DNA from: Catajapyx aquilonaris
Lineage: Eukaryota
Assembly: GCA_000934665.2 (NCBI GenBank)
Contig: JYFJ02003509.1
Span: 1-40,736, forward strand
DNA: 40,736 nucleotides
Reading direction: 5' to 3'
Part shown: positions 695 through 37,662 of the stretch, in pieces
Numbering within the stretch: position 1 is the first letter of the stretch
How the letters are laid out: every line of letters begins with the position of its first letter
Notes under the pieces: generated by a model
What the model was told of the DNA's origin: nothing
Seen by the model: the letters and a program-made list of their open reading frames with translations, nothing else
The model's database searches: none
Made by a program: the position numbers and the translations under genes

Positions 695-1307
695 TGTCCC
701 TGTGGTGGTGGTGGTGGTGGTGGTGGTGGTGGGGCAGGGGGTGGGGGGGATGGGGGGACGGGGCCTGGGGTTGGCCCCGGGGCCGAGTAGGGGGGTCGGG
801 AGGGAAGTGGGGTCCGAGTCACCCCACTGGAAGGTCACAACTGGAGGCTGGACGGTGTGTGCCTAGTCCTCCCACCTCGTACGTCGTCAGGTGGTGGTGT
901 CTGGCCCCCAGGTGCAAGGGCTTCTGGTGGTGGTGAAGGGCTGGCTGCGAAAGCGAGGGCCACAAACGTGGCGGGCAAGACGAGGCAGGCGAAGGGCGTG
1001 TGTGTGTGTGTGGAGGGGGAGGCGCCAAATAAAATAAAAAAGTCCCAAGTCACACTCTGGTCAGGAGAGGATGAGGACTCACTCACTGGGCCCACTCTAC
1101 CACACGCTCTGGCAGGGTCGGGAGAGGATGGTTCCCTCGACGGATCACAGGTGGCGGGCGCACTGGCTGGACAGGCAGAGACACCTGTGGGGAGGCGGGA
1201 ACTGGGGGGCCACCTCAAAAGGGACGGAACGGAACCTACCGGCCACAGCGGCCAACTATTCCCGGAGTCCACTGATTACACCTTCCCTGGTCGGTGGAGA
1301 GGTGAAG
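695..1307. promoter_or_regulatory. GC-rich bidirectional promoter and 5'UTR region between GID4 and the KCTD gene
   Basis: Head-to-head ATGs at 694 (-) and 1308 (+), 613 bp apart. Contains (GTG)n at ~702-731, G-tracts at ~730-812 and (GT)n at ~997-1012. Confidence 0.7.
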
Positions 1308-4300
1308 ATGGCCGCTCCTGCTTCTGCTGCTCCATCCTCCTCGTCCCGCTGTGGCAGCCTGGAGATGGACTCGTGCTCGTCCTCCTCCGAGCCCATGGTG
1401 AACAACGTCGGAGGGATGCACCACAACTGCTGCCCCTGCTCGGGGTCCTCCTCGCTCCCAAGCAGCTGCTGCCACACCAACTCGGTAGCCAGCTGCGCCA
1501 GTGCTGCCCAGAGCCCGCCCGCCTCCTCCACCAGCAAGCAGTGGGTCAGGCTCAACGTCGGAGGGACCTGCTTCCTCACCACAAAGACCACCCTCTGCAG
1601 GGACCCAAAGTCCTTCCTCTGCAGGATCTGCCAGGAGGACTCAGACCTCATTTCAGACAGGGTGAGACGCTCACCTCTACACTTTGCTTATAGGGGAACG
1701 AGGAGGAGGAACAAAGCCCTGTTTGGTGTAACACATGCAGAGCCAAGGGTGGGGGAGCTACTGGCACTGATGTCATGCTGCATACATGAGGCATTTTCTC
1801 CCATGTGTTATAGGCTGCCCACCCTAACTTGCCATTGATGTCATAGTTTTGCATACCAATTCCTAGTCAGAGTAAATCTGCCACATGGACTCCTGGAACC
1901 TCGCACTTTTCAAGTCTCCATGGAGATGCCCGAACAGTTTTCTTTCGTCGACACTGTTTACTCTTATTTTTGTGAGGGCATCTACATGGAAATTTGGAAA
2001 GTGAAACAATGACGTCAATGGCAAGTTAGAGTGGGCTGCCTATACAATCAAGTTTCAGTGCAAGTCATCAGTAAATGGTACGGAAAAATTCAATTATGAT
2101 GTTCCTCTGAGGGTGTTCAAGTAACTAACCACAGGGGGTGGCTGAGACGGAAACGTCTCGGCTTGCTGAGTAGAAGGTCCCGGGTTCGATCTCCACCCAG
2201 GAGTTCCCTTTCACCTGCATCAGGAGGGTCTCTGACCCATGACTTGGAGGTGTCTGGCAACTTAGCCTTCAACCCAAGTATTCCAACATTGCACCTGCAC
2301 CTGTGTCTCCTCCCCGAAACATCCCCATCCCTACCTCATTATCCTTTCCTCCTTGCACGGTGACTGAAGAAAATTAAGTAAAATGGATGGGAAAATATAT
2401 GGTGGTGTTCCACCCCCCTAAGAACCCTGGCCCTATCACGGAGTAATACAAAAAAAGAGAAAAAGTAACTAACCACTTTGTCAGGCTGGCAAAGCAACAA
2501 ACATGATTGGGGACTGCATTGATGTCAATGACCATTCTTAAATGTCAGGTCTAGTTTGTACTCACTTTCATGGCTCTCTTCTTGTGGAATATCACCTTCC
2601 ATATTATATTTGACTGATTCTGGCATGCCTGTATAACCCATGGGTGGCCGGCATGCTGCAATAACTGAGGTAGATTTCCATCATTTTTATCCTTGTCATT
2701 TTCTGGTGGGAATGCTTCTGGTACCCTTCTAAAATAATGTTATGCTGAAAAAATGGGTGAGTGTACAGGGCTGTGAGAATAAGCAGGATCTGTTTCACAG
2801 TGCATATGAGAGTGTGACCAATCCCATCATCAGCTTTGAGAGGGGAACCCTCTATTCCATCACAAAGGATTAAGACAAACTCCTTCAGTATTTCTCTTTG
2901 CTCAATTGTTCGCTGTTCGGAAAATGTGCCTTTGCGATATACGTGGATTTCTATTTTCAGTGAAAAAAAATATCAAGTTCAGAAAGGATAATGCAAGTTA
3001 AAACCTCTCCTTAGACCGGCACACCTTAGTTTGACCGGCATGCCGGTATAGCCACCAGATCACGCATTTCTAAAAACTGTTCGACCTCGACTACACCAGC
3101 ATGCTGCTTTAAGTGAGGTAATATGGTACATGTGCCACACCATAGGACTTGACATGTTGTTGTTGAAGTGTTTCCCTCAATGCATTTCACATATTGAGTA
3201 CATTGCTAAATTCAGTGGCTGCCGCAGCGAAATAATCTAGTAACAATAAAATAACAATAAGTAACCAATAGGAGACCTCAGCAGTGCTGACAGCTCTGAG
3301 TTTAGCAACGCACTCATTGTTAGTGAGAATATTGTTATCACAATAGTATCCAAGTTACCATGCAAAAAACTGAAACATCTTGATCTGTACCAAACACAGC
3401 GGTAACATGGAATAATATTTTATTTAATGATATGGCTTCCTGCACAGTGCTTCATTTGTAGTGTATTTCATCTGAGTAGTTTTAACAAAAATTTTAACAA
3501 ATGAGAAGATTGCAGTATGTAATAGTGTGTGTCTGTTCACGCAGCCATATCTCTCCACAAAATTCACTTCCGCTATTCCACTTCTGAAGTGTGGTAGATA
3601 CCAGCTACTTGTTGATTACTTGGGTGAACAGAAGTGCTTGTGACTAAAATCTATGTAGATAATATAAGACCTCCAGCAACTAATCATGGCCTCTTGGTCT
3701 CATGTTTGAATTCTGGAATCTTGATGTTCCATGATGTTGCCATGATGTTCTATGGTGCTGCCAGCATTATTCGCATTTAAATACTCAATGATGTGTGTTT
3801 CCTTCTTGACCTCAGACCTTAACAAACCTGTTCCTAGGTGGCCTTGGAAGTATTTCAAACTGCTGCATCATAAGCTACATGAATTCTGTCAAGTGGAGTG
3901 TGGAGGATAACCAAACCTACCATCCTGCAATACTAATTTCTCTCAGAGGACTGTCATTAATATAAGGGTGTAGAGGAAGTTTTCCTCTTGAGCCACAAAA
4001 GGTGCTAAAGTACTTGCCAAGATCAGGATGAAGCTGAGATTTATATTCAGATATGCCAGTAGGCTAGGCATTCCCCTCCCACCTCCCCCCAGAACTGTCC
4101 ATAATGTTGTTGGATGACAAATTCAGAGATTCTGCAGCAACAGGCATAAATTTGTCAAAAATTATGTTGACAGAAAATAAAACCTGGTGGCCTTTCTGAG
4201 CCAGTCACAATCGTGGCTCTAAACCAGAGTTTCCCAAACTGTGCTCCGCGAAGCTTTTCCAAGTGCTCCGCGAGGAGGTTGGGAAAAAAATGAATTCTTC

Positions 4301-11777: not shown

Positions 11778-11899
11778 TAATGTTGAATACATTACATTAC
11801 ATCAGAAAAGTTACAAATTGGCAAGTAGTACTGAGTCTCATGGTGATTTCTATTTTTGACAGGTGATGGGGGGTTGTAGGCACTGAGGAAGGAGTTACA

Positions 11900-14405
11900 A
11901 TGGAGGTGGCAACAATGTCACCACCAACAACGGTTGCGGAGGTGGCAGTTCCCTTGTCTCTGGTGCCATCTGGAACAACGCTGACTTTGGTCACCAAACC
12001 AAAGGAATCTCTGGCACCACTTGTGATAAAGCCGGAGGTGACCCCAGTTGTGATCAAACCAGATGTGGCATCATTGTTGGAGGTCAAATTGGACAGTCCT
12101 GTGGAGACTCAAGTTGAGCCTCCAGTGGAGGCACCAACTGTGGAAACTTCTGCATTGAAGACTCCTACTTCAGAAGCTTCGGTATTGGAGACCTCAACGT
12201 CTGAGACTTCCGCGACTCCAAGTACAAGTGGCTCCAACCCAACTCCAGTTTCACCAACTGCCACAACCCCAACCGTCCGCCGTCGCCGCCGCAGGCACTC
12301 AGCCAACACGTATTGGACCAAACGGGCTCGTAAGAAGATATTGTCTCCAACGTCAACTACACCACCTGCATCACTCCCTGATTGTTGCTGCAACAATGGT
12401 TGCCTTGACAAAGTTGGTGCTGAGGACCGTGCTCGATTGTTCCGTACCTTCTGGGGGCTTGGAAGCCTTGGAAAGCAGCGAGCGTATTTATCAGAGCGTG
12501 TCAAAGCTGCAGGGTCACCAGGCGGCCCCACACTGGAGTATCACCTGGATGGTACAAAGCCAGGTGACACTGTAGTGGTGTGCCGACCATTTTTTAGGTC
12601 GACATTGGCTGCTTCCAACAGGATGTTAAATCGAGTAGTCTCGGCCAAGACGGAGGAGGTAGCACCAACACCTAAATCTCCTGAACCATTCCGATGCCCA
12701 TATTCGTTAAGGTCGCCAGAAAAGAAGAAAGAACCGGAGCGCAATGGTGTTGCCAATGGTAGTTACTATTATGAGGAGGAACTTGACGAGCTGGATGAGT
12801 TGAGTGACACTGACAGTGATGCTGGTATGGTTGACGTCACACCATCTGCAGCATCTCTTCTTCCAAATTTTTCTTGGCCCAAAGAGCTCTCAGTAATGGT
12901 GCAAAATCCGAGTCCATTGTTGTCAGATCCAGCTTCACACCATCTGCAACCTGTGAGCTGCAAGTGTTGGCATGGCTGCAGTTCTAAAATTACAGAACAG
13001 CAGCGGCAGAAAATTTTCCGCCACTTCTGGAGTTTAGATCCAACAGCCCAGCAGGACTACCTCAATCGCCAGATTTTTGAGATGCGCAAGAAGAAGACTC
13101 AGCTACGTGGCGGGAAGCCAAGCAGGCGTAAATATTCTTGTGAATATTATTTGGAGGCAGATGGCCACAGATACCAGGTGTGTCTGAACTACTTCGTCAA
13201 GACCCTGGACGTCACCATCAACATGGTGCGAGTCATACTCAAGAACCGGAGAGTACGTGACTCGCAACCACAGCAGGGAAAATTTGTAGTAGCTGTTGTC
13301 AAGTCTCCAGATGTTGCTGCTCATGAAGAGGAATCAGACGACTATGTTGATGTTGCTGAGAAACTGGAAATCATCTTAACCGTTGGCTCCGAGGTGTTGA
13401 AGCTTAAGGATGAAGAGCAGTATCCTCAGCTCCACCATCAGCTTGACATGCCACCATCTGTTCCAGCACCATACATGCATCACCTTCCACTGTCATTGAC
13501 ACTTCCTCAGATGCTTGATGCAGTGCCGCCTGGCACCAGGTCAGCCCGACCTCCCCGTCGCCTCGAGCCAGTTGAGTGCCGCTGTTGGAACCAGTGCAAC
13601 ATGAAGATAAGTGAGAAGCATCGGCAGCATATTTTCAACCATTTCTGGCAACTAGGTTCCTACAGTCTCCAGAGGCAGTTTCTACTACAACATGTGGTTG
13701 ACAAGAAGAAGAGGTGCATCCGATCGCCAAAAGGGACCGATTCCAGACGGAAGTATACCTGCGAGTATTACTTGGATGCAGGTGGACATAGAGTGCAGGT
13801 GAGCACGTCAACCATGAGTGCAACAGGCTTATATTTTCAGTTGCAGCCGACTTAATTGTTACATCTTTCAGGTGTGCCAGCGCTTCTTCATCAAAACCCT
13901 GGGCATATCTGGTTCTCTGGTTCATCTGACTCTCCGCAAGAAACGTACCTTTGGTATCGAGATGGCGGGAGTGGACAGGAGGGGTCTGTGGAGGAGCCTT
14001 CAGACCGAAGGTGCCGGTGGACGCCCATCTGCCTCTCCACCTCCACCACAAGCACCCACTCCCCTCCCTGCACACCAAATGCAGCCAACCCATCACCTCC
14101 CCCTCTCATTCCACCATCCCCAGCTCTATCATTCATCTGACCCACTGTTGGACACTATCACCAAGAACCCCGAATTGGAGATCACTGTCCGCAATGGATC
14201 AGCGTCTAGCAATGGTGGCATGGGTAGGGCGCCCATGTATCAGCCTACCCAACTCCTCTCCTCCCACCCTTCCAATGCTCCTTCATCTGTCTTTTACTGC
14301 CTCCCAGACATTGTGGTAAGGAAAAGGGAGATGCCTGCTCCAGGGATGCAGAATGGGACTGGACAAAGCGCAAGTTTCTTGCCTCAGCCTGGTCTTAGTG
14401 TCTGA
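11900..14405 (+). CDS. Uncharacterised ~810-aa, probably nuclear, protein with three Cys-rich modules resembling a transposase N-terminal domain; exons 11900-13798 and 13872-14405
   Basis: Acceptor at 11862 and an in-frame TGA at 11864 fix ATG 11900. A 73-nt GT-AG intron joins HRVQ|VCQRFF, completing repeat 3. Three modules CxCxxxC..K(I/V)....R..(I/L)F..FW.L....Q..(Y/F)L ... EY(Y/H)L ... VC..(F/Y)F..TL at ~12383-12640, ~12959-13240 and ~13577-13935. Basic NLS-like RRRRRRHSANTYWTKRARKK. Confidence 0.85.
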
Positions 14406-17586: not shown

Positions 17587-20500
17587 CTAATCGTCCAACA
17601 CGGTTTCTTCTTCCTTGACAAAAAATTCCACCACTTCCTCATCCAGGTTGGTCTGGTCCACATCCACATCGTCTGTGTCTACATCTGGAAATGTAAAGTT
17701 TTGTGTGGGTATCATCAAGTACACTCTGCAAGGAAGTTTACAAAGGTTGGACTTTTGTGCGAGGTGAGGACTGAAACTTACTGCTCCTGAGCTCAAGTCT
17801 CCTCTTCTTCTGTGCCTGATACTGGTCTGCCTTCTTCTGCCGATATTCCTTAAACTCTGCTGTGAGCCGCCGCCTCTTCTCGGCAAGCTCCTTGTCTGCC
17901 TTGAACATTCCTTCTCTGTCCTTCAATTCAAATTTCGCAGAATATTTCTTCATGTTGCGCTTGATTTCTTTCAGGTTGTTGGGACCCAGCAGATTTGGAG
18001 GGCGTGGTCTCCACAACAATTGACAGAAGCGTTCCATGTTGTATCGTTTCAAGATTCGCCCCTGGAACGTCCACAGCCAGTATGCATTGTCCACCTGTGG
18101 GATAAATGTAACAAATCATCTCGGCTGAAATTTCCACGACAATTTCTCAATTCTGTTACACATGGTACAATGGTGGGGGGTCTAACATGGGCAAACTCTA
18201 CCTAGGGTTTCATCTACCATGGGACAGAAGGGAGGCAACAGTATACAACTACACATTTCCTAAGCTTCAAATATGCAGTTTCCATACCTTGTGACCCCAC
18301 CAGGACACTCCTGTGGCCACATATCTTCCTGTAGGATCCCACTCAACGTCAGTAGCCATGAAATGCTCAGTGGTGTTCATGATGGTGAAGTCGGAGGTAT
18401 CGACAAACTCCAAAACACCATTCATGTTTCTAAGTCCGGCCAATACGATGAACTGTCCTTGAGGGGCCCAGAACAGATGGTTGCATTGCTTGCGCTCATA
18501 TTTCTTAAGCATGACAGGGGCCTGTCCAGTCTTCACGGCATAAAAGCTTACACAGATGTTAGGGATGTCCCCATGAATAACAGCAAACTTTGACCCCACA
18601 GGCTCCCATGCAAATGCCTGCACAGTCTCTTTAATCTCCACGCTGTCAACAGGGACCTGCTTCTCCCGCATGTGGAATATCTCAAAGTTGTGATGGATGC
18701 CCTGTTAAAATAATACACATTAACATAATTTCCAGAGCATGTAACATGCATCAAGATTGCAGAGTAATTGATTGAGAATCGACTGCAGTGCCTGGCAATC
18801 CTGAACGAAATGACTAGGGGTGGAATTTTCGTCTTCTTACTAGTTACTGCTAACCTGAGCAGTACCTGCTGTCCAACAAGAATTGTCGCAGCGGCCTGGG
18901 CAGCGCACGAACTACAGTCTCTCGTGTCCCTGTGCTCGTAGATTGTAGTTCGTGCGCTGCCGCTGCGACAATTCTTGTTGGACTGATAGTACCAATGCAC
19001 TACACTGGCACTAACAAGTAAGTTAGAAGTAACTAGTAGTACGACGAAAATTCCACCCAAGGTGACAAAGGCAACAGTGCTAACAGTGCTCAATTTCTTA
19101 GATAAATTATAGGGAGCTCAGTACTGATGCAATCTTTCCAAAATCACGACAATGAACTTGAAAAAAAACATCGCATCACATCAATCAAATATGAAATGAC
19201 GCCTGTCCAATCATGTAGAAGTGGTCATACTTACAGTAAACTTGAGCTCATTTTTCTCCTTCTTGGCTTTGCTGTATCGATCCACTTTTACACAGAGGAA
19301 GTCACCCGACTTCTGCCAGTGCATCTTGCAGTCGATCACGTTGAACAAATTCTTTGCTCGGATTTCTATTCGGCTGGAAAGTAATTTCTACATTAATGCC
19401 AATCAGCCAACTACTGGTGTAATAAAATCTCCATATTTATCATGTCTGTTCAGAAAGGGCTAAGCTGTTTCGTCAGACTTGAACAATCCGATAAGTCTCA
19501 AGTCAAAATTCATCACAACAGACATTTTTCTGTGTCGACTTCTCTCAAGTGCAGAACTCATTAGTACAGAATCATAGATGATGTCGTCAGTAGAAAGGTA
19601 CCAATATTTCAAGGCTATCACTTTTCGCATTTCTTCACAGAGGGATGTAATTTTTAGTCATCTGGTTTTAGCTATTATTAAATTTACTAAGGTTATTAGT
19701 TATTTCAATTGTTATCTAAGTGCACCTATTGGAATTCATTGACTTCGCAGCCTGTTGAGAGAATTGCCTCTCAGCTGCAACCAAAATTACCATATCCGTT
19801 AAGAGCAAACGAAGAATTTGAACACAATTTTGGCCATTACATGCCAACAACAGCAGCAGGTTTTCTTTGCTGACCACTCCCAAAATTTTAAAGCAAGCAC
19901 AAATTGGCACTTGCCCAATTATAGTAAAGGGGTTCCTGGAGGAAACAACCCATAACTTCTTTCCCTACCCTCTTTGGAACTGGGACCTCAATAGTGCACC
20001 ACTATATTTCCACTCTAGTAACAAATTATTAATACTTCTACACAATTGATTTTTTTCTTTCACACCTTGGAATCTCAAGCAGCACGACTCTGGAAGGCAC
20101 ATCTTTCTCCTCTGCCACCCAGTAGGCCATCTGATTATCTGTGGGACTCCAGCTGAAATCCCGGATCCCAGGCACCTTAATGCTCTTCTTGTCCAGCAAA
20201 CCAAATGATGGTGTTTCATACACGCTCAATAAATCCTGACCCATACGTGCAAAGTAATGGTCATCATGAGACCACTTAAATATAGGCCAGGTGGACTGGA
20301 CTGCATCTGCATGGAACATGCGTTTCATTGAGCCATTGCGAATCTCCCATACAATGATGGGCTGGGTGACTCCTCCTTCAATTCCAGTGCCAGCACTTCC
20401 ATGGTGGTGGTGGTGATGCTCCTGCATTGGGCTGAACATAACCACATATTTTTCAAGCGGACTGAAGTCAATAAATTGGACCCCTTGTTGCCCAAACTTG

Positions 20501-23500
20501 ACAATTTGTTTGAATTGCTCCCCACCCCATAGTGCAATTCCTTTAGAGTGGAAAGTGGCTATGTAAGTTCCTAGTGGCGACCAACGAACATAAGTTTCTG
20601 TCCATCGATTTCGCTCCTCTACCAATTCCCGCTCTGGGACAGTGTTGAGGTATATCTGCAGCTTTTCACCACCTTCATTCAGGATGCAGTACTGGTCACA
20701 TGCATCTGGTTCAAGCAAGTAGTACCACATGTTCCCTTGATCCTTGTATGGTTGCGGTTTCGGGGGAATCCATTCATCAGGTGTGTCCTCATACCTGCAA
20801 GTTAACAGATACTTTATCCAACAATGTCCATATGGTAGTAACTATGGGTGGAATTTTAGTCCCACTGCTAGTTACTGCTAACTTACCCAGAGCCATGGCC
20901 AACACTGGTACTACTTTTACTATTGCTACGTTAGCAGTAACTAGCAGTGGGACGAAAATTCTTCGCTATACAGTATTTACAGCATTGGTAATGAATTTCA
21001 GAAAACAGCTTAATGGGGCTGGCTCAGGCACTAACCAGTAGGGCGGCGCTAGTGGGCGAAAGGTTATAGTTCAGTATTGGAGATGAAGCTCGAACCTTGC
21101 TGAGACAGTGCGAAGCAAAGGTCTGAACCAGCAAAATGCCACAGTACTGTTGTGTACCGAGTTGCCGATGCAACATTTCCGGCCATCAATTTCCCAAAAA
21201 CCCATCGCTTTGGAAACAGTGGCGAGTTGCCATCAAACGCGTGGATTCACGAACTGGAAATCTTTGAGATCAGGTTGTTCATGATGTCGTCTGCCATTTG
21301 CACTTCAAGCCTGAGGACTACAGAATTTGCGAGTTTGCGGTCGATGTGACCCTTTTGGTTTTGGTCTAGTCACGCCAAAATTTTCGACACAGTTTTTTCC
21401 CCCCCTCTCCTTATGTTCGCCCCTGCACCCTCTCCTTGCCCCTCTCCTCCCCTTCCGGGGGAGGAGAGGTTGCTGGGGCGAATATACCATGCTATGGGCA
21501 AGGTGGGGCAGGCACCGGGCCGAGACGGAGAATGGGTGGGCTTGGCCGCTGTGAGAGCGAGGCATAGCGGGCTCAAGGAGGAGTGGGGTCCACTCGCAGG
21601 GTTACCTCTGAAAATTCATTGCGGCCAATCTAGGGGTCGCCCTGGTTTGACAGTGCCCCCGTTGTCGAGACGAGATTCCGAGGATGCCGTCGAGGTCCAC
21701 ATCGGCCATAAATAACCACGGTTTATTTTACTGGAGAATTTAATAGCGAATATGAGGGTAAAAAGTGGGACATATAGCCTCTGGGAGGGTGAGAATCTGG
21801 CGGGCTGTAACCCAACGGGTCGAGAGTGCAGGGTTGTCTCTGAAAATTCATTCCGGCCAAACTGGGGGTCGCACGGGTGTGACAGTCCCCATGTCGTCGA
21901 GGGGAGATTTCAACGTTTCCGTCGAAGGCCATATCGGCCATAAATAACAACGGGTTAATTTACGGGGGAATTTTATTCTTTTCTTCTTCCCCTCATATTC
22001 GATATTAAATTCTCAAGTAAAATAACCGCCCGGTATTTACGGCTTATATGGACATTGACGGAATCCTCGGAATCTCCTCTCGACGATGGGGGCACTGTCA
22101 CACCAGGGCGACTCCCAGTTTGGCCGGAATGAATTTTTAGAGGCAACCCTGCACTCTCGCCCGTGCATGCGGCCGTATATAGAGAGAAAAACAATAACCT
22201 TCCGCACACTAATGCCACCCGTCGGCCGAACTTTCGGTGAGCCAGCCCCATTACACAATAATTAAATTTTCGTTACGACTGTAAAAGTCAAGTGTACCTC
22301 ACTTTCAGGGTACCGCTACCATTAACCAATATTGATGGTTCTCTCAGATACAAGCAAGAATAGAAGCAAGAACCTACTTTTCAAAGTCAGTGAATAAATT
22401 GACACTGAAGATGTGGTGTTTGTCCAACTTATATCCATGAGTTGTCTTGACAGCCTCCAACGCATTGGCTGCACTGCTGTACTCAAGGAAAATATACCTG
22501 TAATGAAATATGAGTATTAGCATCTTGTGTAGCTTTAACTCAGCCATACAACAATCCTGCTAATGCATCCACTCAGAAAGGGCTAAGCTTTTTCGTCAGG
22601 AGATCCGACATGTCTCAATCACATTACTCATCACAATGGACACATTCTGCCCTAGATTCAAGGTTCAAGTCATGATTGCTTGGCATACATACAGAAAAAA
22701 AAGAAATCAGCCGAGCTTATAAGGCGTTACATGAAAAATTTCACATTGCTGAGGATTGCCTTCCTTTCAGAAATATCAACCCGTCAGCCAATTTTAAAAA
22801 TAACGACAAATGGCTCATCCATCAAAATATTTGTTCCATCAACACTAACCCTTTCGTTTTCTTGTCTTCCGTAACAGGGTAGTCCTCATTGATGATGTTG
22901 CCAAACTTGGAGAAGACCTTGTGGATGGTGTTCCTCAGCTTCTCCTGTCTGTCTGGACCAACCTCTGGCACACCATCCACAACAATGACTGCCTCAACAC
23001 CATCAGTCTCTTTTGGCTTCTGTTTCATAAAGTCTGTCAAGAGCTCTGGAAAAAAAGGTTAGTATAACAGTAACAGCACAATGAATTGACGGTCCATATG
23101 TAGAGGAACCTTTCTATAGATATGGACAAATGAACATGCTGAAGGTGTCAAGCTTGTGTTGCAAGGAGTAGGCCATCACGTCACTGCCATATTAAGTTAT
23201 CAACAATTGCATTTGCAATGGCTCGTTAGCACCCCTGGATCAAACAGTAGCCAAAGTCATGTGACCCCCCCAAAAATTTCACCTACATCTACACCTTTTT
23301 AATGTTTTTGATAGCAAAATAATCCGCTTATAAGACCTGGATAAAAGAAGCCATAAGTCTTGGCAAACAGAATAAAACTGCTGACAGTGAAAATTTATCA
23401 CGAATTTACTCACAAATTATTACTGCAGTGCAAGTTACACAGGAATACCTTGTTAATAGGGCATGTTTGGTTCCAGACAACTGCCACAGGCTTTTTTTGC

Positions 23501-24498
23501 CACCTGCTACTGCACATGAAAGTCTTGAGACATGTTTATACTGTCATACATTACGTTTTTCTAGTCATATATTAGTTTGCAATAGCACAACGCTGCGTAG
23601 TGCTATCGCAAACTAATATATGACTAGCGTAGTCTACGTAGGAAAAAGAAGACATTAAAGTAACAAGCCATTGCACCACAGCAACAAGCAATTGCACCAC
23701 TGTTTGTCAATTATGTTCACACCTGCTCTTAATAANGGGGGGCGCTCTACGGCCTAGACTGGGTCAGACTGTAAATCTCTCAAAGTAAGTGCAAGCAAAG
23801 TGCCAAAATTAATAAATAGGATGTACTTGAAATTGCTACATATTCCTACATTCAATTCTGTGAAATCATTTCTGGGCTACGTAACGCCCATATGGATCCG
23901 GGCCATACGATCCACCCTTAAACCCATCCAACAGAAAGGGGGGATTGGGAGAATAGGCCATGAATTTTGCTGGGGCAGGTATATGTCACGTTTTCCAAGC
24001 CTGATCTACACTGGATTTATTAGCGTTTGCGACTGCAGGCCACAACAGCTGTGCCGTCCTGCTTGCTCCTAATCCTCATCCTGCCCTACTTCCTGCCAAA
24101 GTTGCAACACAGCTCTCAACCATTTTATTTTGTTAAGTGTGCAGGGTAGCCCACATGCCACATAATTCACTCTTGGACCGCAGCCTTCAGGTCCTGATCA
24201 AGGGACATATGTGACATGCGCCGCACTCCTCTGCGGACCACCCCTGTGCCCCACCGGCCCCCACATGCACGTAGTGTCGGAACCCTTCCATCCCTCTATA
24301 GTTGGGGGGCGCCGTACCATCTTCCTCTATGTCATCGACATATCCCTCCGAGTCGCTGAAGTTGGGCTCCTCATCGTATCCCCCTCCTCCTCCTCCTCCT
24401 CCTCCTCCGCCTCCTCCGTCTCCCTTGTTGCTGCCCTCCCCGTCCTCCTTAGGGTCGTGCCCGCCACCGGTCCGGTCCCCTTCCTTCTTCTTGGCCAT
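17587..24498 (-). CDS. EIF3B: Translation initiation factor eIF3 subunit B, ~729 aa; exons 24498-24318, 23045-22850, 22497-22378, 20794-20066, 19373-19235, 18701-18288, 18094-17782, 17684-17587
   Basis: [29 protein letters not shown]...TKGYIFLEY; propeller motifs [86 protein letters not shown]-terminal [12 protein letters not shown]. All seven introns GT-AG and in phase (2190 nt). Minus-strand AATAAA at 17448-17453. Confidence 0.97.
18818..19058. mobile_element. MITE, GGGTGGAATTTT family (PIF/Harbinger-like), long copy, in eIF3b intron 5
   Basis: TIR GGGTGGAATTTTCGTCTTCTTACTAGTTACTGCTAAC / GTTAGAAGTAACTAGTAGTACGACGAAAATTCCACCC; flanks TAG/AAG. Confidence 0.8.
19442..19525 (-). ncRNA. Intronic box C/D snoRNA, copy 1 (eIF3b intron 4)
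   Basis: Minus strand: stem ATGTCTGT, C box GTGATGA (19516-19510), internal TGACGA (C'), guide AGCTTAGCCCTTT, D box CTGA (19453-19450), stem ACAGACAT. Same strand as the host gene; D box ~76 nt upstream of the 3' splice site; paralog in intron 2. Confidence 0.85.
20846..20966. mobile_element. MITE, GGGTGGAATTTT family, short copy (121 bp), in eIF3b intron 3
   Basis: TAT|GGGTGGAATTTTAGTCCCACTGCTAGTTACTGCTAAC ... GTTAGCAGTAACTAGCAGTGGGACGAAAATTCTTCGC|TAT; TIR shared with the 18818-19058 element. Confidence 0.8.
21136..21321 (+). pseudogene. THAP zinc-finger domain remnant (transposase N-terminus) with one in-frame stop
   Basis: Hand translation from ATG 21136: [61 protein letters not shown], giving the C2CH THAP signature (CCVPxC, FP, W, CxxHF). 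TGA at 21265 sits where Trp (TGG) is expected. Confidence 0.88.
21596..22159. repeat. Three diverged copies of a ~145-170-bp unit: direct at ~21596-21758 and ~21828-21973, inverted at ~21989-22159
   Basis: Shared blocks GCAGGGTT..CTCT.AAAATTCATT.CGGCCAA.CT.GG.GTCGC..TGACAGT.CCC..GTCGA..GAGATT..GCC.TAAATA. Confidence 0.9.
22565..22643 (-). ncRNA. Intronic box C/D snoRNA, copy 2 (eIF3b intron 2)
   Basis: Minus strand: stem GTGTCCAT, C box GTGATGA (22634-22628), TGACGA (C'), guide AGCTTAGCCCTTT, D box CTGA (22576-22573), stem GTGGATGC (with G:U pairs). D box ~75 nt upstream of the 3' splice site. Confidence 0.85.
23561..23627. repeat. 67-bp near-perfect hairpin in eIF3b intron 1
   Basis: CTAGTCATATATTAGTTTGCAATAGCAC / GTGCTATCGCAAACTAATATATGACTAG; 28-bp arms with one mismatch and an 11-nt loop. 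Confidence 0.85.
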
Positions 24499-24813
24499 GG
24501 CTCCAAGCTGGTCTCTCTCCCGATGCCCTCCCCAAAACCAGCACTAGTCTACAAGCTGCAGGATGGCCGCCTGGATGCCGCGTGGTTGGTGGGACTCGCC
24601 TTTCTCCAAACCTCGCCTCTCGTTCAGATGCTGGCCGACAGGGAGGGACAACGTCACAGGAAGAGAAGCCGCACACGCCTGGTGCAATCCCTGATCTTCC
24701 AATGCCAGCCACTACTCACCTAAATTCACAAAAGTACGGATAATTGCATTTATTTTGTAAGTCAATTACCGTACGGATTACTGGATGGGAAGGGGTGAGA
24801 GTGGGCGGATTAG

Positions 24814-27796: not shown

Positions 27797-30474
27797 ATGG
27801 ACTGCAAGTGCGGGCTTTGGTCTTCCCTGTGCATCTTGCTGCTCTTCTCCGCACCTGGTTCAGGACTAACAACCACTTCTACTAATTACTGCTATGCTGA
27901 GGACCACAATCCTTACCTACAGTTCGGAACCAAGACATCCTACGATGTGGTAGGCAGGGAGGACAGTTCCCCTCTCTATTATCCAGGTACGCAACTAATC
28001 ATATAGGGTGGGTTTCTATATGCCCAAGTTGACGATCCGGAGAGGATGAGGGAGAGTTGGTGGATTAGTCACTCCTGACGATGTAAGCAAATTAGGCGGT
28101 ATGCAGAAAAGTCAGTAGATTTCCACCCAGTTTCTTAATTAATATTTTTAACATGATATGACAGCAGTGTGTGCTCTTATTTGTAGGACATGCAAATCAG
28201 GAAGAAAATCGCCAATTCTGACTTTCTTGCCACTATGAGTGTAATGTCGAAAGTGCTGGTTCACCCATAATAATGTAGCCTGCTGTGTAAAAGTAGCTTC
28301 TATTAAGAGTCGCGCCGAGTTTCCTCTCTTTCCCAGACGAAAGTGGCATTTTAATGTACACATACTCTTGAGATCTTGAGCTCTTGAAGTTGAACCCGCA
28401 GTATAGACAACAGGCTTAAGTGAGCTTATGTTACAAATTCTTTTACCCCGAGAGGCCTTCGAGTGGAGATGCCATGGTGCCCATTAGCATATCAAGATCA
28501 TATATGTATGAGGAAGCTACTATGGGCAGCTTAATAAGAATAGTCCGTTAAGTAGAGGGTGATTTCGTAGGTGATGGCCCAGTCACCCTTGGCCGCCCTT
28601 ACATTATGCATGGAGCCAATGAAAGCCATCTGGTCACTAATGAGCCTCGGCCTCAGGGATACTTCAGCAACAGCGACCTGACATTTGCATGCACACACAT
28701 GCCATTACGCATGCGCTGAGCACACACATCGATCTCAAGGTCAACTCACATGTCCAACGCATCTGTCTGGATCTTGCTATAATTGCCACAAGGATAATGT
28801 GCTCTTCTCAACACTTTTTTAAATACTGTTTGCCAGCTGCTAGGTACTGCTGGTGCTATTTTTACAATGCACCATGCTGAGTTCATGTCGTTCCCATGTC
28901 ACCTTTCAGTGAGGTTTTTATGGTGCATGAAACGGACGCTGTGAAATGTAAACTAAACTAAAATTTGTTGCAGGTTGTAGACCTGTGCAATTTTGGTTTG
29001 TGTCGAGAGAAGGAAGCAGCTACCCGGATGATGACGAGACTCAAGAGATGAAGACGGACCTGTACAGCTTGCGAGATACCATCACCCGGAACCACGACAG
29101 CAGGAGAGGAGAACTCTGCCGCGAAGATCAGGATGTGCTAAGGCACTGGCGCTTGCATGTCGACCAGACCTACGACAACCTCTTGTCCCCTGCCGGTGTG
29201 GAAGAGATGAAAGAGTTAGGAAGAAGATACAGGATGAGGCTGCCCACTCTTCTTTCATCTTCTTACGGATGGCAGTTCTACGAAGTGAGTTTATTGGTTG
29301 CTTTGGGGATCATCCATCACGATGGTTGTTTTTCTTTCAGTTCCGACATTCACCAGCCAAGAGGTCAGAGCAAAGTGCTAAGGCTTTTGCGCAGGGACTT
29401 TTCGATAGCCGGGAACCATTGATGTCACTCCCGAGGCCCGTTGATTATGACCCCAACCAAGTTGTAAGTGCTGGAGGCGATATTGCGGGGACGAAAATAT
29501 TGACAAACCATTGCTTCACCGCAGGACTCGAGGCACTACTCGGCACCCCCGACCATGCACCTTCAGTACTACGAGAATTGCCGTCGTTGGAACAAAGCGG
29601 TGAGGGACTCCAGGATGTCAGAAGAGCTGGAAGGATTCACAGACAGCTACGAGATGCAGGTCACCATAGCTAAAATAAGCCGGCGGTTGGGATTCAGAGG
29701 AAACCTCAGCCTTGGTCAGTGTTTTTTTTTCTAATTCGTTAAAATGTGATGTGCCTAATTACCTTCGACCAACACAGATATCCTCAGCTTGATATACGAT
29801 TCCTGCGGGTATGACAAGGCGCTGAAGCCGGACGAGCCTTCCCCCTGGTGCACCGCCTTCACTAAGGATGACCTCAGGGTACTAACACCATACCGACCAA
29901 TCTGTTCCAACCTCTCCATATTCCCATGCTCTTGCAGATGTTCGAGTTCAAAGAAGATCTGGAGTCGTACTACAAGTATGGCTATGGCACAGACTTCAAC
30001 TACTATATGGGCTGTCCCCTGATAAAAGACATGATGGCCCGCTTTCGGAGCATGCAGCGACGAGGCGACGGTGGTCCATTCGGCGTCTTCTACTTCGGGC
30101 ACGCTCCTCTGATCCAGCTCCTGTTGACCTCCCTGGGAATATCCCGCGACCGTAGTGACCTCCGGTTCAACTCCTGGAGCGCTGACCGCCGCTGGCGCAA
30201 CAGCCGCATGGCCCCCTTCGCCGGCAACCTAGCCGCGGTCATGCTCAACTGCACCAACAACTTCAAGGTGCAATTCTACCTGCAGGAGAAGCCAGCGGAC
30301 GTGTGCCAGGCAGGCCTTTGCACCTGGTCAGAGATGGAGAGGCTGTACCGGGACCTGGCACACGAGTGCGATGAATCCGAAATCTGCGACGCCGGAGTCT
30401 CCATCACCAGCAGCACACTCCTTGTCGGACTTGTTGCCGTACTCGTGTACCTCGTCCCGCAGAATTTGCGCTGA
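27797..30474 (+). CDS. MINPP1: MINPP1-family (Mipp1-like) histidine phosphatase paralog A with a degenerate catalytic motif, ~469 aa; exons 27797-27986, 28974-29284, 29341-29463, 29567-29714 (or 29525-29714), 29778-29878, 29938-30474
   Basis: Signal peptide (MDCKCGLWSSLCILLLFSAPGSG); FGTKTSY, GCRPVQFWFVSREGSSYP, GELCRED, RSEQSAKAFAQGLF, SPWCTAF, EDLESYYKYGYG, YFGHAP, RRWRNSRMAPFAGNL; hydrophobic C-terminus. In-phase GT-AG introns, no stops or frameshifts. Confidence 0.92.
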
Positions 30475-31926: not shown

Positions 31927-32504
31927 TAACAAGACGTCTTGTTGAAATATTATTATACGTAATCATGTACATTTGAAAGTGGAGTGCTTCTTGCATTAAT
32001 TATTTCAAATCAGTCAAATACATATGATTGCATGTAACGAGCAAATTCTGATAGTTATGACTTATTTCAGTGACACAATCGGAAGCATCCAGCCCCGGCG
32101 AGTAATCATTCCGACAGGACACGAATCACACGAATTCCCAGCAGACACACCTTCTGAGCCTCTGAGCCCCCAACCTCCCAACCGATGACTCAACCCAACC
32201 TTCCGACAGGAAAAAAGGGCGTGCCACACCACAAAAAAAAGCACACGCATCTTCTCATGTACCCATCCTCATTTATTCTATATAAAAAAGGTAAAAAAAT
32301 CGAGCAATGACTCCAGTCCAAAAATGGCGCCGCCTGGATGAGACAAGGCCATGTAAAATCTTAAAACCTTTTTCGTTCACCTTCCAACAGTCTTCCTCCC
32401 CCCCTCTCTACCACCTTCCCACCCACACCTTCCTCTGATGTTTTGCCCTCAGGGGCTTGAAAAAGAGCGGGTTCCGCCTCTTCCTCCACACAACCGGTTA
32501 ACGG

Positions 32505-32557
32505 TCAGTGAGTGGTGAGCAAGCATCGTGGCCGGTGAAACAACATATTCTGTCCAG
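32505..32557 (+). promoter_or_regulatory. Candidate initiator and non-coding first exon of MINPP paralog B
   Basis: Arthropod Inr TCAGT at 32505 followed by donor CAG|GTTAGT at 32557/32558. An acceptor TTTCTTTGCAG ending at 34111 precedes the ATG at 34130. YY1-like AAAATGGCG at ~32321. Confidence 0.45.
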
Positions 32558-34129
32558 GTTAGTTTCATATTGTTGGGGGGACACACGCAGCATATGAGTC
32601 TGATTGTTTAACCTTGGGAAGGGGACGCGCCTTCCTTCATATAAGATGTTGTCCGCTCGTTATATGCGGGGCTCTAATTAGTGCCAATTGCTCGGGTGGG
32701 GACGACCCTTCTCTCTTAATCATATTCAGTTTGAGCAGTTGGGGTTGACCCTCTTCTTATTCTGGCCTGCTGGTTTCAAACCAATATGTGATGGTTGTAA
32801 CGAGTTGTACTGGAAAAGGCGGTTATAAAAAGAAAGGAAAAAAGTATTCAAGTGGCGCACATATAAAAATTTGTGACGTCACTCGCCCTATTTTAGAACT
32901 TGTCACATTTTGCCGGCAACTAAATGACGTCATACAGGTCTAGGTGCTTGTACTTCAATAGGTAATTTGTGATACAGTATGAGATTCGTGATATAAACAA
33001 GGATGTCCACTAGAGGACATCGTCAATAAACAAAGATAAGATGAAGTGGTGGTACAATATAATACGTGTAGCTAATATTGCATTTTCAGAAAGCTGACAG
33101 GCATTGTAAGTACACATCTGCTCGCCCACTTACCGTGCATTGACTGTAAAATGTCGACACGCGTTCATTATTCTTGCTATCAGCTCAGAGGTTAAGCATC
33201 ACTATGGTGGGCTTATGTTAGAGGTTAGAGTATATTTGGCTTGGGTCACTGCTCGCAGAACCAGGGAAAAATAGTTGCATATCATTTTGATCGATTGTTC
33301 AAAGGAAGAGGAAACCAAGTTGAAGCTGAAAGGTAGTAATCAGCATGACAAGGGCATATGGTGGTCATCACAGAATCCACGAACAACATGTGGACATCAC
33401 GACAAGCGGTCAGTTCTATCGTGATCATTTTTCTACGACGTAGCGCGCATCAGGAAATTGATTTTACATATTTATCAGTATTGTTATTATATTGCGTATA
33501 GCATTCGGTAGCATCTGACATGTCTTCCCATTATCGTGACAATAATTGATCATGACACTGTCCTTCCGCTATCGACCGTACCACTCTAAAAAAAAACCCC
33601 CATATAAAAAGAACCGCTTAAGTTACCGGAGCTTCAATACGTGAAAAAACATTCAAAAACGTGGGTGTAGACACCATGAAACGGTGAACAAGGCGAGGCA
33701 CGTTACACTTACTCTGTTTTTATCCGCTGAGGTTCATACCCCGTGCAGCCGATTTCTAGTATTTGGAAAAGATAGTCCAGCTAAAAAACCGGTCAGCCTG
33801 TGGACCGGACATGAATATTCCCTCGCCTTCCTCATTTTTCCCATGCGTCCAGCAGGTGAGGCATAAATTCACTTCCGGGTGTTTTTTATCCCCCCCTAGG
33901 TATTCCCCCTCTGAATGCGGCTTCACAGGTGAGAGATGAGAGTGAAAAGGGCCGCGAGGCATGAAGGCGACAACGCCTCCGCTACTCTTCGTCCATTTTT
34001 TTTTTTTCCACATCTCTTTCGCGTGTCTCAATGGTCCCGACCCCAACGGGGCCCTGATAAAATCAAGGGGCTTGACAAACACAATGGTCAACAAGTGAAT
34101 TTTCTTTGCAGTGTGGTGCAGCTGTTGAG

Positions 34130-37100
34130 ATGCATCGGTTGTTCTTACTTGCACTGGCCCTATGGGCGGTCCAGGTGTCCAATGCACAATTCCAGCAGCA
34201 GCCTTATTGTTATGCGGATGATCGAGACCAGTATGTGTATTTTGGTACTAAAACAGCATATGAGTTTGTCAACAAGGAAGATTCTGGACCCACATATTTC
34301 GAGAGTGAGTACCCATTCTTGGAGCTATATGAGAATTTGAATGTAAACATGCCTATTGTTTTCAGATTGCGAGCCATTTCAGTTCTGGTTCGTGAGTCGG
34401 CATGGGACTAGGTACCCTGATAAGGAGGACATTGTGCAAATGGATCAGGAGCTGGAGAAGCTGAGCAAAGGAATTTTGCGGAACCACCAGGAGAGGAGAG
34501 GTGAGCAAGGCTGTCTGATACGTATTTTGTTGAGCAAACTAGTCGTCCCTGACTCACCTCCGTACCATGCAATTTTTTCAGTGTATTTCTTTCACTTGAG
34601 ACATATGAGTATTAGAATGAGGTCGTTCTGCGTAATATTATCAGAGGGTATAGCCTTCTATTCAGTCATATATTCACGATGTGATATGTGCGGTTTACTT
34701 GAATGTAGGATAGCGTCAAGGCCATGCGATGACTCAGACATTTTTTTAAAGGAAATCCCTGAGGCGACCGGCTTTTCAAAGTCCCTTCGTGGTTTCAATA
34801 CATTCAGTATATGGGACCGGTAAATGGTTTTTAACGAGCTTGTTTATACTCCAATCATAACATGCGCTGTAGTAAACATGAGCTATAGTGGCATTTTTAT
34901 GTTATAGATTTTGCATCCTACCATTTGTGCCACATGTTACTCGTATTATGCAGTAAATGTGCTACGGGGACGTATCTGGGGGTGTGTGCCGCAAGTTATA
35001 TCAAGCGTAATAAGCTTGCCTAGTCTCTTCCATTATCTGTTACGTAAAAAATAGGAAGGAATGAATGTGTTGTCAGGAGTAGGCCTATATATATCTTTTA
35101 ATCTCCCAGTGTGGTCGCAAGTTCTGATTAATTTGCATGTGGTACATTCAAGGCTGAATTTATAGCAGATCTATGATACATCAGAACACCCCCCCCCCTA
35201 AATAAATAAATAAATAAATAATAATCACATTCATAACTTAATTAATCAGTATAATAATTACGAAGTTCGATACGACTACGAAATTGTTGGACGCAGAATT
35301 AATATAGCAATGAATGAAATCGATTCACATTGACTCCTGTAATTCGGGCTCCTCACGCAGTCCCGTGATTGGCAAATAGATATCATTTACATGTTACGTG
35401 ATATCGATACCAGATGGCAATCCTGTTGGCCAATATTTTCTGCAGCAATTATCAGTAAGCAGATATCATCTTTCGACTACTGCACTGTAGTCCTACATCA
35501 CAGTCATATTACGACACCCGTTTTAACCAGCTTATTTGATTTGAAGCAACTCCGAATATATTCATGGATATCAAAACACCCATTCAGACAGCACTGTCAC
35601 TCGGATTAAATTTTGCAAATTAAACTATAAAACACGCGGTCGCAATTTGCCGCTATGGTCATGCCGCATAATTACAAAAAAACAAAAAACAAAAAAACGC
35701 TGAAGGTGTCGCGCGCCAAACTGGAAAGCTTCTTGCTTGATGCTCGACCGGTGTAATTCTGACACCAACATATGTAAATCCTCCTTCTACAATGTAACGC
35801 AATGTCACGCTGGATAGTTGTTCCTCCACCCATCAATCATCTCACAGTCAGTGTAACACAGGTTAATTGACGCAGGGTCGTATGGTGCAAAGCGTCGTGG
35901 CTAGTGGAGCATTGCAAATTACTCGCATTATTTGCATGGTAAACAAGAGGGCCGATTTTAATCATGACAGTGACTAACAAATTATCGTTGCATTTAGGAA
36001 ACCTGTGTCGCCGTGACCTTGACCTCCTGACCCAGTGGAGGAGCCTGGGAATTCCAGAGCATTTTGAGAACCGTCTGACCCAATCAGGATGGGAAGACTT
36101 GGACTACCTGGCTCGTCGCTTCAAAGGTCGCCTCCCAACCCTGCTGGCCCGTCCCTATCAAAAGGACATGTTCGAATTCCGTACCACCGACACAGAGAGG
36201 ACAGAGAAGAGTGCCAAGGCATTTGTCAATGGCCTCTTCAATGGCCAGAGCTCGCAAGTGGTCATCCCACCACCTATTCCCAAGGACCCTCTCATTAAGG
36301 TAAGAAACATCTCAGCATCACTGTCTTATCATAAAAATGACCAAATAATGACAATTGATTCATTTTACAGTACTATTCAAATTGCACCAAGTGGGAAAAT
36401 GCGGTGAATGCTTCTGCCCGTGCGGACGAGGTTTATGCTTTTGAGCATGGGTCTGAGGCAATGAAGACCATTAGAAGTGTCAGCCAACGACTTGGGTTCC
36501 AGTACAACCTTACATTAGGTTAGTTGCACTTCACTGTGTAGTATGTTATTGATGTCAAGGCTTGTTGGTGTATTTTATTGAAATACAATATGAAGTTGTG
36601 TGATGGCGGGCCAATTACAGGAGAGATTTATCAGCCAATCTATTACTGGTAATTATACCTCCCTGTAGATTTCAATTCATTAGGGAATAAAGCACCATGA
36701 AAAAGAGACTGTTTATAAAATCATACATATCCAGCATATTGGCCTTTTAATGCATTACAGTTCATTACAATACTTTTGATGTTACACAGCTACATACCAG
36801 TATATTTCTTAACTTCCTAATTAACTACATGAGAGTAGTTGGCATTCCAACGCACTTAACACTATAGTTGAGTATGTTGCTCTCATTGAGTTCAGTTTGT
36901 CATTACTACCCAGTGTAAAACCACATTATGGCAAAATGAAAAATGCATCTATTGACTCTAATGAAAAGTTTCTGAACATTGAATTAATATTAATAAGCTT
37001 ACTGTATCTCTCTTTCAGACCTGATTGACCTAGCATTTGAAGCCTGCCGTTTCCAAAAGGCCTGGGACATTGAGAAGAACTCCGCTTGGTGTGCAGCCTT

Positions 37101-37662
37101 TACAAAAGAAGACATCCGTGTACTGGAATACCTTGAAGATCTCAAGTACTACTACAAGTATGGGTATGGTGTAGAACATAACACACGTATGGGATGTCCA
37201 CTGGTCAAAGACATGATGACCCGCTTCCGAAAGATACGATCAGGCGAAGAGCGAGGCCCATACGGTGTCTTCTACTTTAGCCACTCTGCTCTGATCCAAC
37301 TCTTCCTGACAACTTTGGGAGTTGGCAAAGACAGTGTGCCATTGAGATATGACAACATGGACAAGGATCGCAAGTGGAGGACGAGTTTCATGTCTCCGTT
37401 TGCCTCCAACGCGGCTGCTGTCCTTCTCAACTGCTCCTCAGAGTTCAAGGTGCAGTTCTACCTCCAGGAGGAGACAATGCAAGATGTGTGTCATATGGGG
37501 CTCTGCACATGGGACCAGATGGAAGCAAAGTTTGGGCAGATGGAACAAGAGTGTGATCTCTATCACCTATGTGACCCAGACAGTGGAGCCAATGTGGTTT
37601 CTGGTGTGTCTGGACTCGTCCTGGCAGCTGCACTTTCTGTCACAAGATGGATGGCGATGTAA
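34130..37662 (+). CDS. MINPP1: MINPP1-family (Mipp1-like) histidine phosphatase paralog B with intact RHGxRxP, ~467 aa; exons 34130-34304, 34366-34500, 35998-36299, 36371-36518, 37019-37662
   Basis: Signal peptide MHRLFLLALALWAVQVSNA; FGTKTAY, CEPFQFWFVSRHGTRYP, GNLCRRD, RTEKSAKAFVNGLF, SAWCAAF, EDLKYYYKYGYG, YFSHSA, RKWRTSFMSPFASN; GPI-like tail DSGANVVSGVSGLVLAAALSV. In-phase GT-AG introns (1404 nt). Confidence 0.95.

Follow-up and report, generated by a model that had tools for sequence, protein, structure and literature searches.

Gene A of Catajapyx aquilonaris, an insect-like arthropod, is an intact MINPP gene that reads REGSSYP where its tandem twin, gene B, reads RHGTRYP, and its sequence makes it very probable that the product is catalytically dead on normal substrates. 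We see about an even chance that A is a transcribed duplicate of B whose dead product, probably GPI-tethered at the cell surface, acts via its fold rather than by handling InsP6. Taken alone, A is a modest find; its weight comes from the repeated conversion of such proteins across insects.

The window, that is, the whole stretch of DNA that was analyzed, is the forward strand of contig JYFJ02003509.1 (assembly GCA_000934665.2; 40,736 nt), in which A and B lie as tandem twins, both on the plus strand. Matching DNA was present in five sequencing runs, none of them on record as RNA, and three of the five (X1, X4, and X5) were compared with the window on the basis of contigs, in which rare variants could be hidden. 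X1 and X4 are DNA runs from one sample, possibly the assembly's own source. X5 comes from another sample and another study, its library type is unrecorded, and it was treated as RNA because its contigs are spliced. The features of the two genes are as follows.

27797..27986, plus strand: exon 1 of gene A, with the start codon, a likely signal peptide (about residues 1-23), and a KTxY motif
28974..29284, plus strand: exon 2 of gene A, containing the degenerate nucleophile motif
29006..29026, plus strand: REGSSYP of gene A (AGA GAA GGA AGC AGC TAC CCG), with Arg75 kept, His76 replaced by Glu (codon 29009-29011), and the second Arg (79) replaced by Ser (codon 29018-29020); identical in the spliced X5 contig
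29341..29463, plus strand: exon 3 of gene A, with the third catalytic Arg175 kept (29362-29364)
29525..29714, plus strand: exon 4 of gene A, the first 42 nt of which (29525-29566) encode 14 residues absent from B
29778..29878, plus strand: exon 5 of gene A, from the spliced contig
29938..30474, plus strand: exon 6 of gene A, with the second motif, hydrophobic tail, and stop codon
30475..31263, plus strand: 3' untranslated part of gene A, covered by the spliced contig
32503..32557 (start approximate), plus strand: non-coding first exon of gene B, joined from 32554 to 34109 (GT..AG)
34130..37662, plus strand: coding span of gene B, 5 exons, 467 aa
34130-34304, 34366-34500, 35998-36299, 36371-36518, and 37019-37662, plus strand: coding exons of gene B

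The frame of A comprises 483 open codons in six exons (27797-30474), with no internal stop and with GT..AG boundaries at all five introns. A single 2,247-nt contig of X5 skips all five introns and shows 0 other letters relative to the genome; the gene is likewise matched without differences in X1 and X4. These comparisons establish both altered codons, Glu and Ser, as genuine and show that A undergoes transcription and splicing. The initial annotation had set REGSSYP in A against RHGTRYP in B (34398-34418), had argued that a single sequencing error is unlikely, and had described the splice sites as intact; all of this is confirmed, the altered codons also in independent RNA-type data. A sequencing or assembly error behind REGSSYP was rejected on the basis of the 0 other letters in contigs of two DNA runs and of X5, and the possibility that A is an unspliced or silent pseudogene was rejected as far as one spliced contig shows. 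At the transcript level (one contig, one independent run), A is thus an expressed intact gene, as is expected of a pseudophosphatase. The length of about 469 aa given in the initial annotation needs correction: the X5 transcript uses the acceptor at 29525, giving 483 aa, and the shorter length fits a second in-frame acceptor 42 nt downstream within exon 4 (exon start 29567), a form that was absent from the one spliced X5 contig but may exist as a minor isoform. The signal peptide and hydrophobic tail that had been proposed for A stand as far as hydropathy goes, with peaks at both ends that suit a signal peptide and a GPI-type tail; the tail itself (about 30388-30471) resembles a GPI signal by the same measure. 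B is also spliced in X5, the same run as A. A separate 1,094-nt X5 contig (38377-39470) overlaps the end of the B transcript and probably represents the 3' end of the following gene.

Other features of the window were noted as well. Head to head with A, about 3 kb apart, lies a multi-exon minus-strand gene (about 17600-24540) with a Pfam match to the eIF2A family, which we take to be eIF3b. Inside an intron, at about 21600-22160, a unit of roughly 150 nt was seen by eye in both direct and inverted orientation, as in a small mobile element. On the plus strand, a 662-residue open stretch (11867-13855) contains three Cys-rich repeats (CxCxxxC, then an aromatic helix-like motif); it has no Pfam match and is possibly transposase-derived. 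The start of a BTB_2 (KCTD-like) gene (1038-1838, plus strand) is divergent from a minus-strand exon (488-862) that has no Pfam match and that we take to resemble GID4/Vid24.

To place A within a family, the exon pieces of both genes were scanned against Pfam. All five pieces, two of A and three of B, match His_Phos_2 (PF00328), and three of the five pass the cut-off; exon 6 of A scores 28.6 bits against a cut-off of 23.6, and exon 2 of A alone, at 14.1 bits, falls below it. A search of exon 6 of A against 1.84 billion representatives gave 901 matches at E values up to 0.001, the best 150 of which were used, and a profile search gave 76 matches that added 68 new sequences. Thirty proteins among the matches listed were looked up by cluster; where the names are informative, they denote MINPP1-like proteins of arthropods, and the rest are unnamed. 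No ortholog of A was found among the 159 near-full-length homologs in the matches listed, the best identity being 40% to A and 44% to B, and two word-index searches with exons 2 and 6 of A against longer proteins returned nothing, which is weak evidence. A groups with MINPP1-like proteins, as sister to B inside the insect group, and carries the third Arg (Arg175) and the second His (His360) of the family; RHGxRxP with its nucleophilic His is absent (REGSSYP). As judged from sequence, A is a MINPP by descent that lacks the motif of an active enzyme. Elsewhere in the genome, a third MINPP-like gene has exons at G000:C8686:3961-4665 and G000:C7891:5683-5850; its second motif is THSG, it is closer to the non-tailed group, and no first motif was found for it. 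A large tandem cluster of acid-phosphatase type (G000:C183, about 2.7-121 kb) holds 33 of the 44 PF00328 matches of the genome, with nine canonical RHG motifs found in the loci inspected by a pattern blind to degraded motifs.

In histidine-phosphatase chemistry, no phospho-His intermediate can form without the nucleophilic His. A lacks this His (Glu76) and the second Arg (Ser79) and retains four of the five basic pocket residues, namely, Arg75, Arg175, His360, and Lys46 (27932-27934, within the KTxY motif of exon 1), the last presumably equivalent to Lys50 of human MINPP1. Its second motif is His360-Ala-Pro (30100-30108), without an acidic donor. Among the 48 columns conserved at ≥80% in 90 homologs, all 48 are retained in B and 45 in A, which departs from the family at the His, at the Arg, and in one Tyr-to-Phe change. 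Thus, A has lost 2 of 5 catalytic columns, compared with one of the 43 remaining conserved ones (Fisher p 0.025, post hoc); under a toy model in which decay is neutral once a first hit has occurred, the probability of this pattern is at most about 2e-4. Of 37 structural columns defined from 106 intact rows, A keeps 35, which is the median of the intact rows, and all 11 family-conserved Cys columns are present, as the initial annotation had claimed for the Cys pattern. Over 413 codons, the comparison of A with B gives pN 0.355 and pS 0.718, or dN 0.48 and dS 2.4, values that are near saturation and averaged over both branches. In this alignment, the loss in A is selective for catalytic residues, with the structural core retained; the 45 of 48 conserved columns and the low pN relative to pS support the earlier description of A as intact, selectively kept, and probably catalytically dead. 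In the histidine phosphatase family, the His serves as nucleophile and three Arg residues hold the scissile phosphate (excerpts of PMC7762957 and PMC9181005). Because the counterpart of the lost Arg contacts both the scissile and the neighboring phosphate in AppA (pockets A and B; excerpt of PMC9181005) and serves as an anchor in each of the two main docking hotspots of human MINPP1 (excerpt of PMC13386463), binding of InsP by A in the normal pose looks weakened by analogy.

B carries RHGTRYP together with Arg171 and His342-Ser-Ala and is likely, from its motifs, the active Mipp1-type twin; "Mipp1-type" is a label chosen here, and Drosophila Mipp1 itself was not identified in the alignments. 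The acidic donor of active MINPP is found neither in A (HAP) nor in B (HSA). B shares this absence with 86 of the 116 relatives that have an intact first motif, and since just 30 of those 116 have D/E there (HAE or HD), the donor does not separate A from B. According to PMC9181005, AppA without its proton donor is still active; because of this precedent and because donor absence is common in the set, B is probably an enzyme. The argument that B is also dead since HAE is absent was rejected, donor absence being the norm in this set.

In trees built without the motif columns, A and B come out as sisters, with a support of 100 in FastTree (95 rows and 161 rows) and 97 in IQ-TREE, which, like the AU tests, was run on 24 of the 161 rows. 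Since they are sisters and about 45% identical (210 of 462 aligned residues, about 45-46%), the trees place the loss of the His in A after a lineage-specific duplication. The branch leading to A measures 0.68-0.78 and that leading to B 0.46-0.51. Among the matches listed, all five catalytic residues are present in 106 of the 148 near-full homolog rows; the His is missing from 13, and 28 are without either the His or two or more of the five. These fractions are not rates, because each row represents a cluster and was found with queries based on A and B. Two of the 13 His-less rows (P0009 and P0108), apparently faulty gene models, were left out, after which the tree shows nine changes of the His state, including that in A, although the FastTree placements of long branches are unsure. 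Apart from A, the changes include those of Nicrophorus with Onthophagus as its sister, of a thrips clade, of the bedbug, a lacewing, and Adelges, of two ant copies, and of an unnamed Asp-bearing transcript. The Nicrophorus protein (XP_017777674; sister XP_022917053 in Onthophagus) reads REGTSIP, with the same His-to-Glu and Arg-to-Ser changes as A, and the unnamed P0090 has Asp in place of the His; the other His-less copies carry Pro, Asn, Gly, Val, Tyr, or Arg at this position. AU tests reject trees that join A to the beetle pair (p 8.9e-5) or to the thrips clade (p 0.010), and an ancient dead subfamily common to A and beetles or thrips was accordingly rejected on these 24 of 161 rows.

Degraded copies also form clades of their own. 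For example, in a thrips clade of three clusters (P0174, P0176, and P0178, the last clustering with Frankliniella occidentalis XP_052120129), Pro replaces the His, and 36-37 of the 37 structural columns are kept. A bee/ant clade of 12 rows (P0182, P0188, P0191, P0196-P0199, P0201, P0205, P0206, P0208, and P0210; support 100) has the motif [AT]HGTRCP, in which the His is mostly kept and the first Arg lost; the third-Arg region is disrupted, Asp replaces the second His wherever that position is covered, the tails are strongly hydrophobic, and the database name is MINPP1. Both clades persist across species on short branches, and the bee/ant clade is probably, by its sequences, a dead subfamily as old as the split between bees and ants. 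The 11 His-less rows other than A keep between 0 and 5 of the five basic pocket residues, two of them losing all five, and 8 of the 11 keep at least 33 of the 37 structural columns. A strongly hydrophobic tail is present in 10 of 12 His-less rows (A included) versus 52 of 102 intact rows; longer cleft-side segments occur in 4 of 12 versus 5 of 105, numbers too small and rows too related to count. As a stand-in for A, the Nicrophorus REG-type protein was modeled with AlphaFold2, confidently across the domain; the model resembles fungal phytases and bacterial MINPPs (best E 2.7e-16), so that retention of the phytase/MINPP fold is predicted for this copy.

We propose that a Mipp1-type gene duplicated and that copy A then shed its nucleophilic His along with one of the Arg residues that bind phosphate. 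Glu76 would be placed where the scissile phosphate binds and would pair with Arg75 and Arg175, shutting the pocket, and the 14-residue insert of A may alter the cleft further. The protein would be secreted and tethered at the cell surface by a GPI-type tail, as the hydropathy at both ends suggests, and its conserved fold would there bind a protein or matrix partner. Such a fold-based role is favored because the His-less rows vary in their basic pocket yet mostly keep the structural columns, and because A has lost an Arg and carries a carboxylate at the phosphate site. Counting against it, the four pocket bases retained in A fit residual anion binding equally well, and some pseudophosphatases with odd motifs retain activity, according to an excerpt of PMC13216928, which counts against the dead reading. 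The anion-binding version, in which A is a non-hydrolyzing surface binder of InsP6 or another polyanion that buffers or presents substrate near B and so tunes extracellular inositol phosphates, strikes us as rather unlikely. It would draw on Lys46, Arg75, Arg175, and His360, on the presence of both A and B in one RNA sample (X5), and on substrate competition, a recognized mode of pseudophosphatases (excerpt of PMC13573052). However, a carboxylate stands in place of the His, the second Arg is gone, and this is the residue whose counterparts contact the AppA pockets A and B (PMC9181005) and both human MINPP1 hotspots (PMC13386463); moreover, the other His-less copies lose pocket bases variously, two of them all five.

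It is improbable that A is a dead subunit pairing with B to regulate, stabilize, or traffic it. The presence of the tandem twins in the same RNA sample would suit such pairing, but a shared contig set means the same sample and says nothing of the same cells, and MINPPs are mostly described as monomers. A complex prediction for a stand-in bee pair (intact P0193 with degraded P0198, not A with B) scored 0.00 and is uninformative either way. Many pseudophosphatases do heterodimerize with an active partner, as described for cysteine phosphatases (excerpt of PMC13573052), a precedent that comes from another fold. Quite improbable, too, is the reading that the His of A was lost recently and that the gene, free of constraint, is decaying into a pseudogene, with its conserved core reflecting past selection on the enzyme. 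The longer branch of A (0.68-0.78 versus 0.46-0.51 for B) would suit such decay, the homologs found include no ortholog that would date the loss, and birth-and-death turnover can produce repeated losses in a family that is expanding. Conversely, at least three replacement changes fall in two catalytic codons and almost none in the other conserved columns, A has neither a stop nor a frameshift, and the degraded clades of thrips (3 clusters) and of bees and ants (12 rows) persist across species on short branches. The lowest probability is assigned to changed catalysis in A, for example, with Glu76 as nucleophile or base acting on another substrate. Two Arg residues and the second His remain for such chemistry, and an acid at the His position recurs independently (Glu in Nicrophorus and Asp in P0090). 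Against this, the residue in other copies is Pro, Asn, Gly, Val, Tyr, or Arg, so that the position looks released rather than re-specified, and the exceptions in this fold that are documented as active retain the His (excerpt of PMC13216928).

Returning to the preferred reading of A as a dead surface protein acting via its fold, a broader proposal can be made tentatively. The insect surface MINPP may have turned non-enzymatic at least nine times, in some cases by an identical His-to-Glu change, with the Mipp1 fold having a hidden second surface function as a receptor or scaffold, possibly that of the sought extracellular inositol-phosphate sensor; A would then belong to an unrecognized convergent class of extracellular histidine pseudophosphatases. 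A second, non-enzymatic role of the fold is proposed because likely dead copies arose repeatedly in insects. The extracellular role of InsP6 is poorly understood, and a dead copy beside an intact sister is a clean pair with which to separate the role of the MINPP fold from catalysis outside the cell.

Drosophila Mipp1, which is GPI-anchored, is likewise an insect MINPP, and A and B group with insect MINPP1-like proteins that bear a putative signal peptide and a hydrophobic tail. Mipp1 acts outside the cell and promotes tip-cell filopodia (Cheng and Andrew 2015, as cited in PMC10820837 and PMC8664455) and is reported, by the title of that paper, to do so by extracellular activity, whereas in A the catalytic His and one Arg have been replaced. 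With human and bacterial MINPP (HP2, PF00328; RHGxRxP plus HAE), A shares the Pfam family and the motif order. Equivalents of Lys50, Arg88, Arg186, and the second His of human MINPP are present in A, but those of His89 and Arg92 are not; the acid of HAE is absent from A and also from B and most relatives of the set. Vertebrate MINPP rows carry an ER-retention signal, in place of which A has its hydrophobic tail. The bacterial MINPP fold is matched by the model of the Nicrophorus stand-in.

Within insects, the His-less MINPP1-like proteins of Cimex (XP_014259492), Chrysoperla (XP_044732938), and Wasmannia (XP_011699298) resemble A in having a degraded site on a kept fold, as does the bee/ant THGTRCP clade (Apis XP_006565014 cluster). 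Most His-less insect copies also share with A a putative signal peptide and a hydrophobic tail, although their origins are separate. The named His-less or degraded records that were checked carry ordinary MINPP1(-like) labels, so that expression studies in bee, thrips, beetle, and bedbug may credit activity to dead proteins. A MINPP1 is present in a psyllid gut membrane proteome (excerpt of PMC12858984), and a honey-bee MINPP1 is the top gene in drone semen (excerpt of PMC7793254). A full-text literature search, with most subscription papers outside its scope, found no description of catalytically dead MINPP/Mipp paralogs and no study of His-less insect MINPP1-like proteins, and "Mipp" occurs 0 times in the main text of the FlyBase pseudoenzyme survey (PMC12869072). 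The repeated conversion of insect surface MINPPs into dead proteins is thus apparently undescribed. Pseudophosphatases have been described mainly in cytosolic cysteine-phosphatase families. STYX, MK-STYX, and the yeast Oca proteins illustrate the same concept as A, with the catalytic residue lost, the fold kept, and a regulatory or binding role; these, however, are cytosolic proteins of cysteine-phosphatase folds, whereas A has a histidine-phosphatase fold and probably belongs to the secretory pathway.
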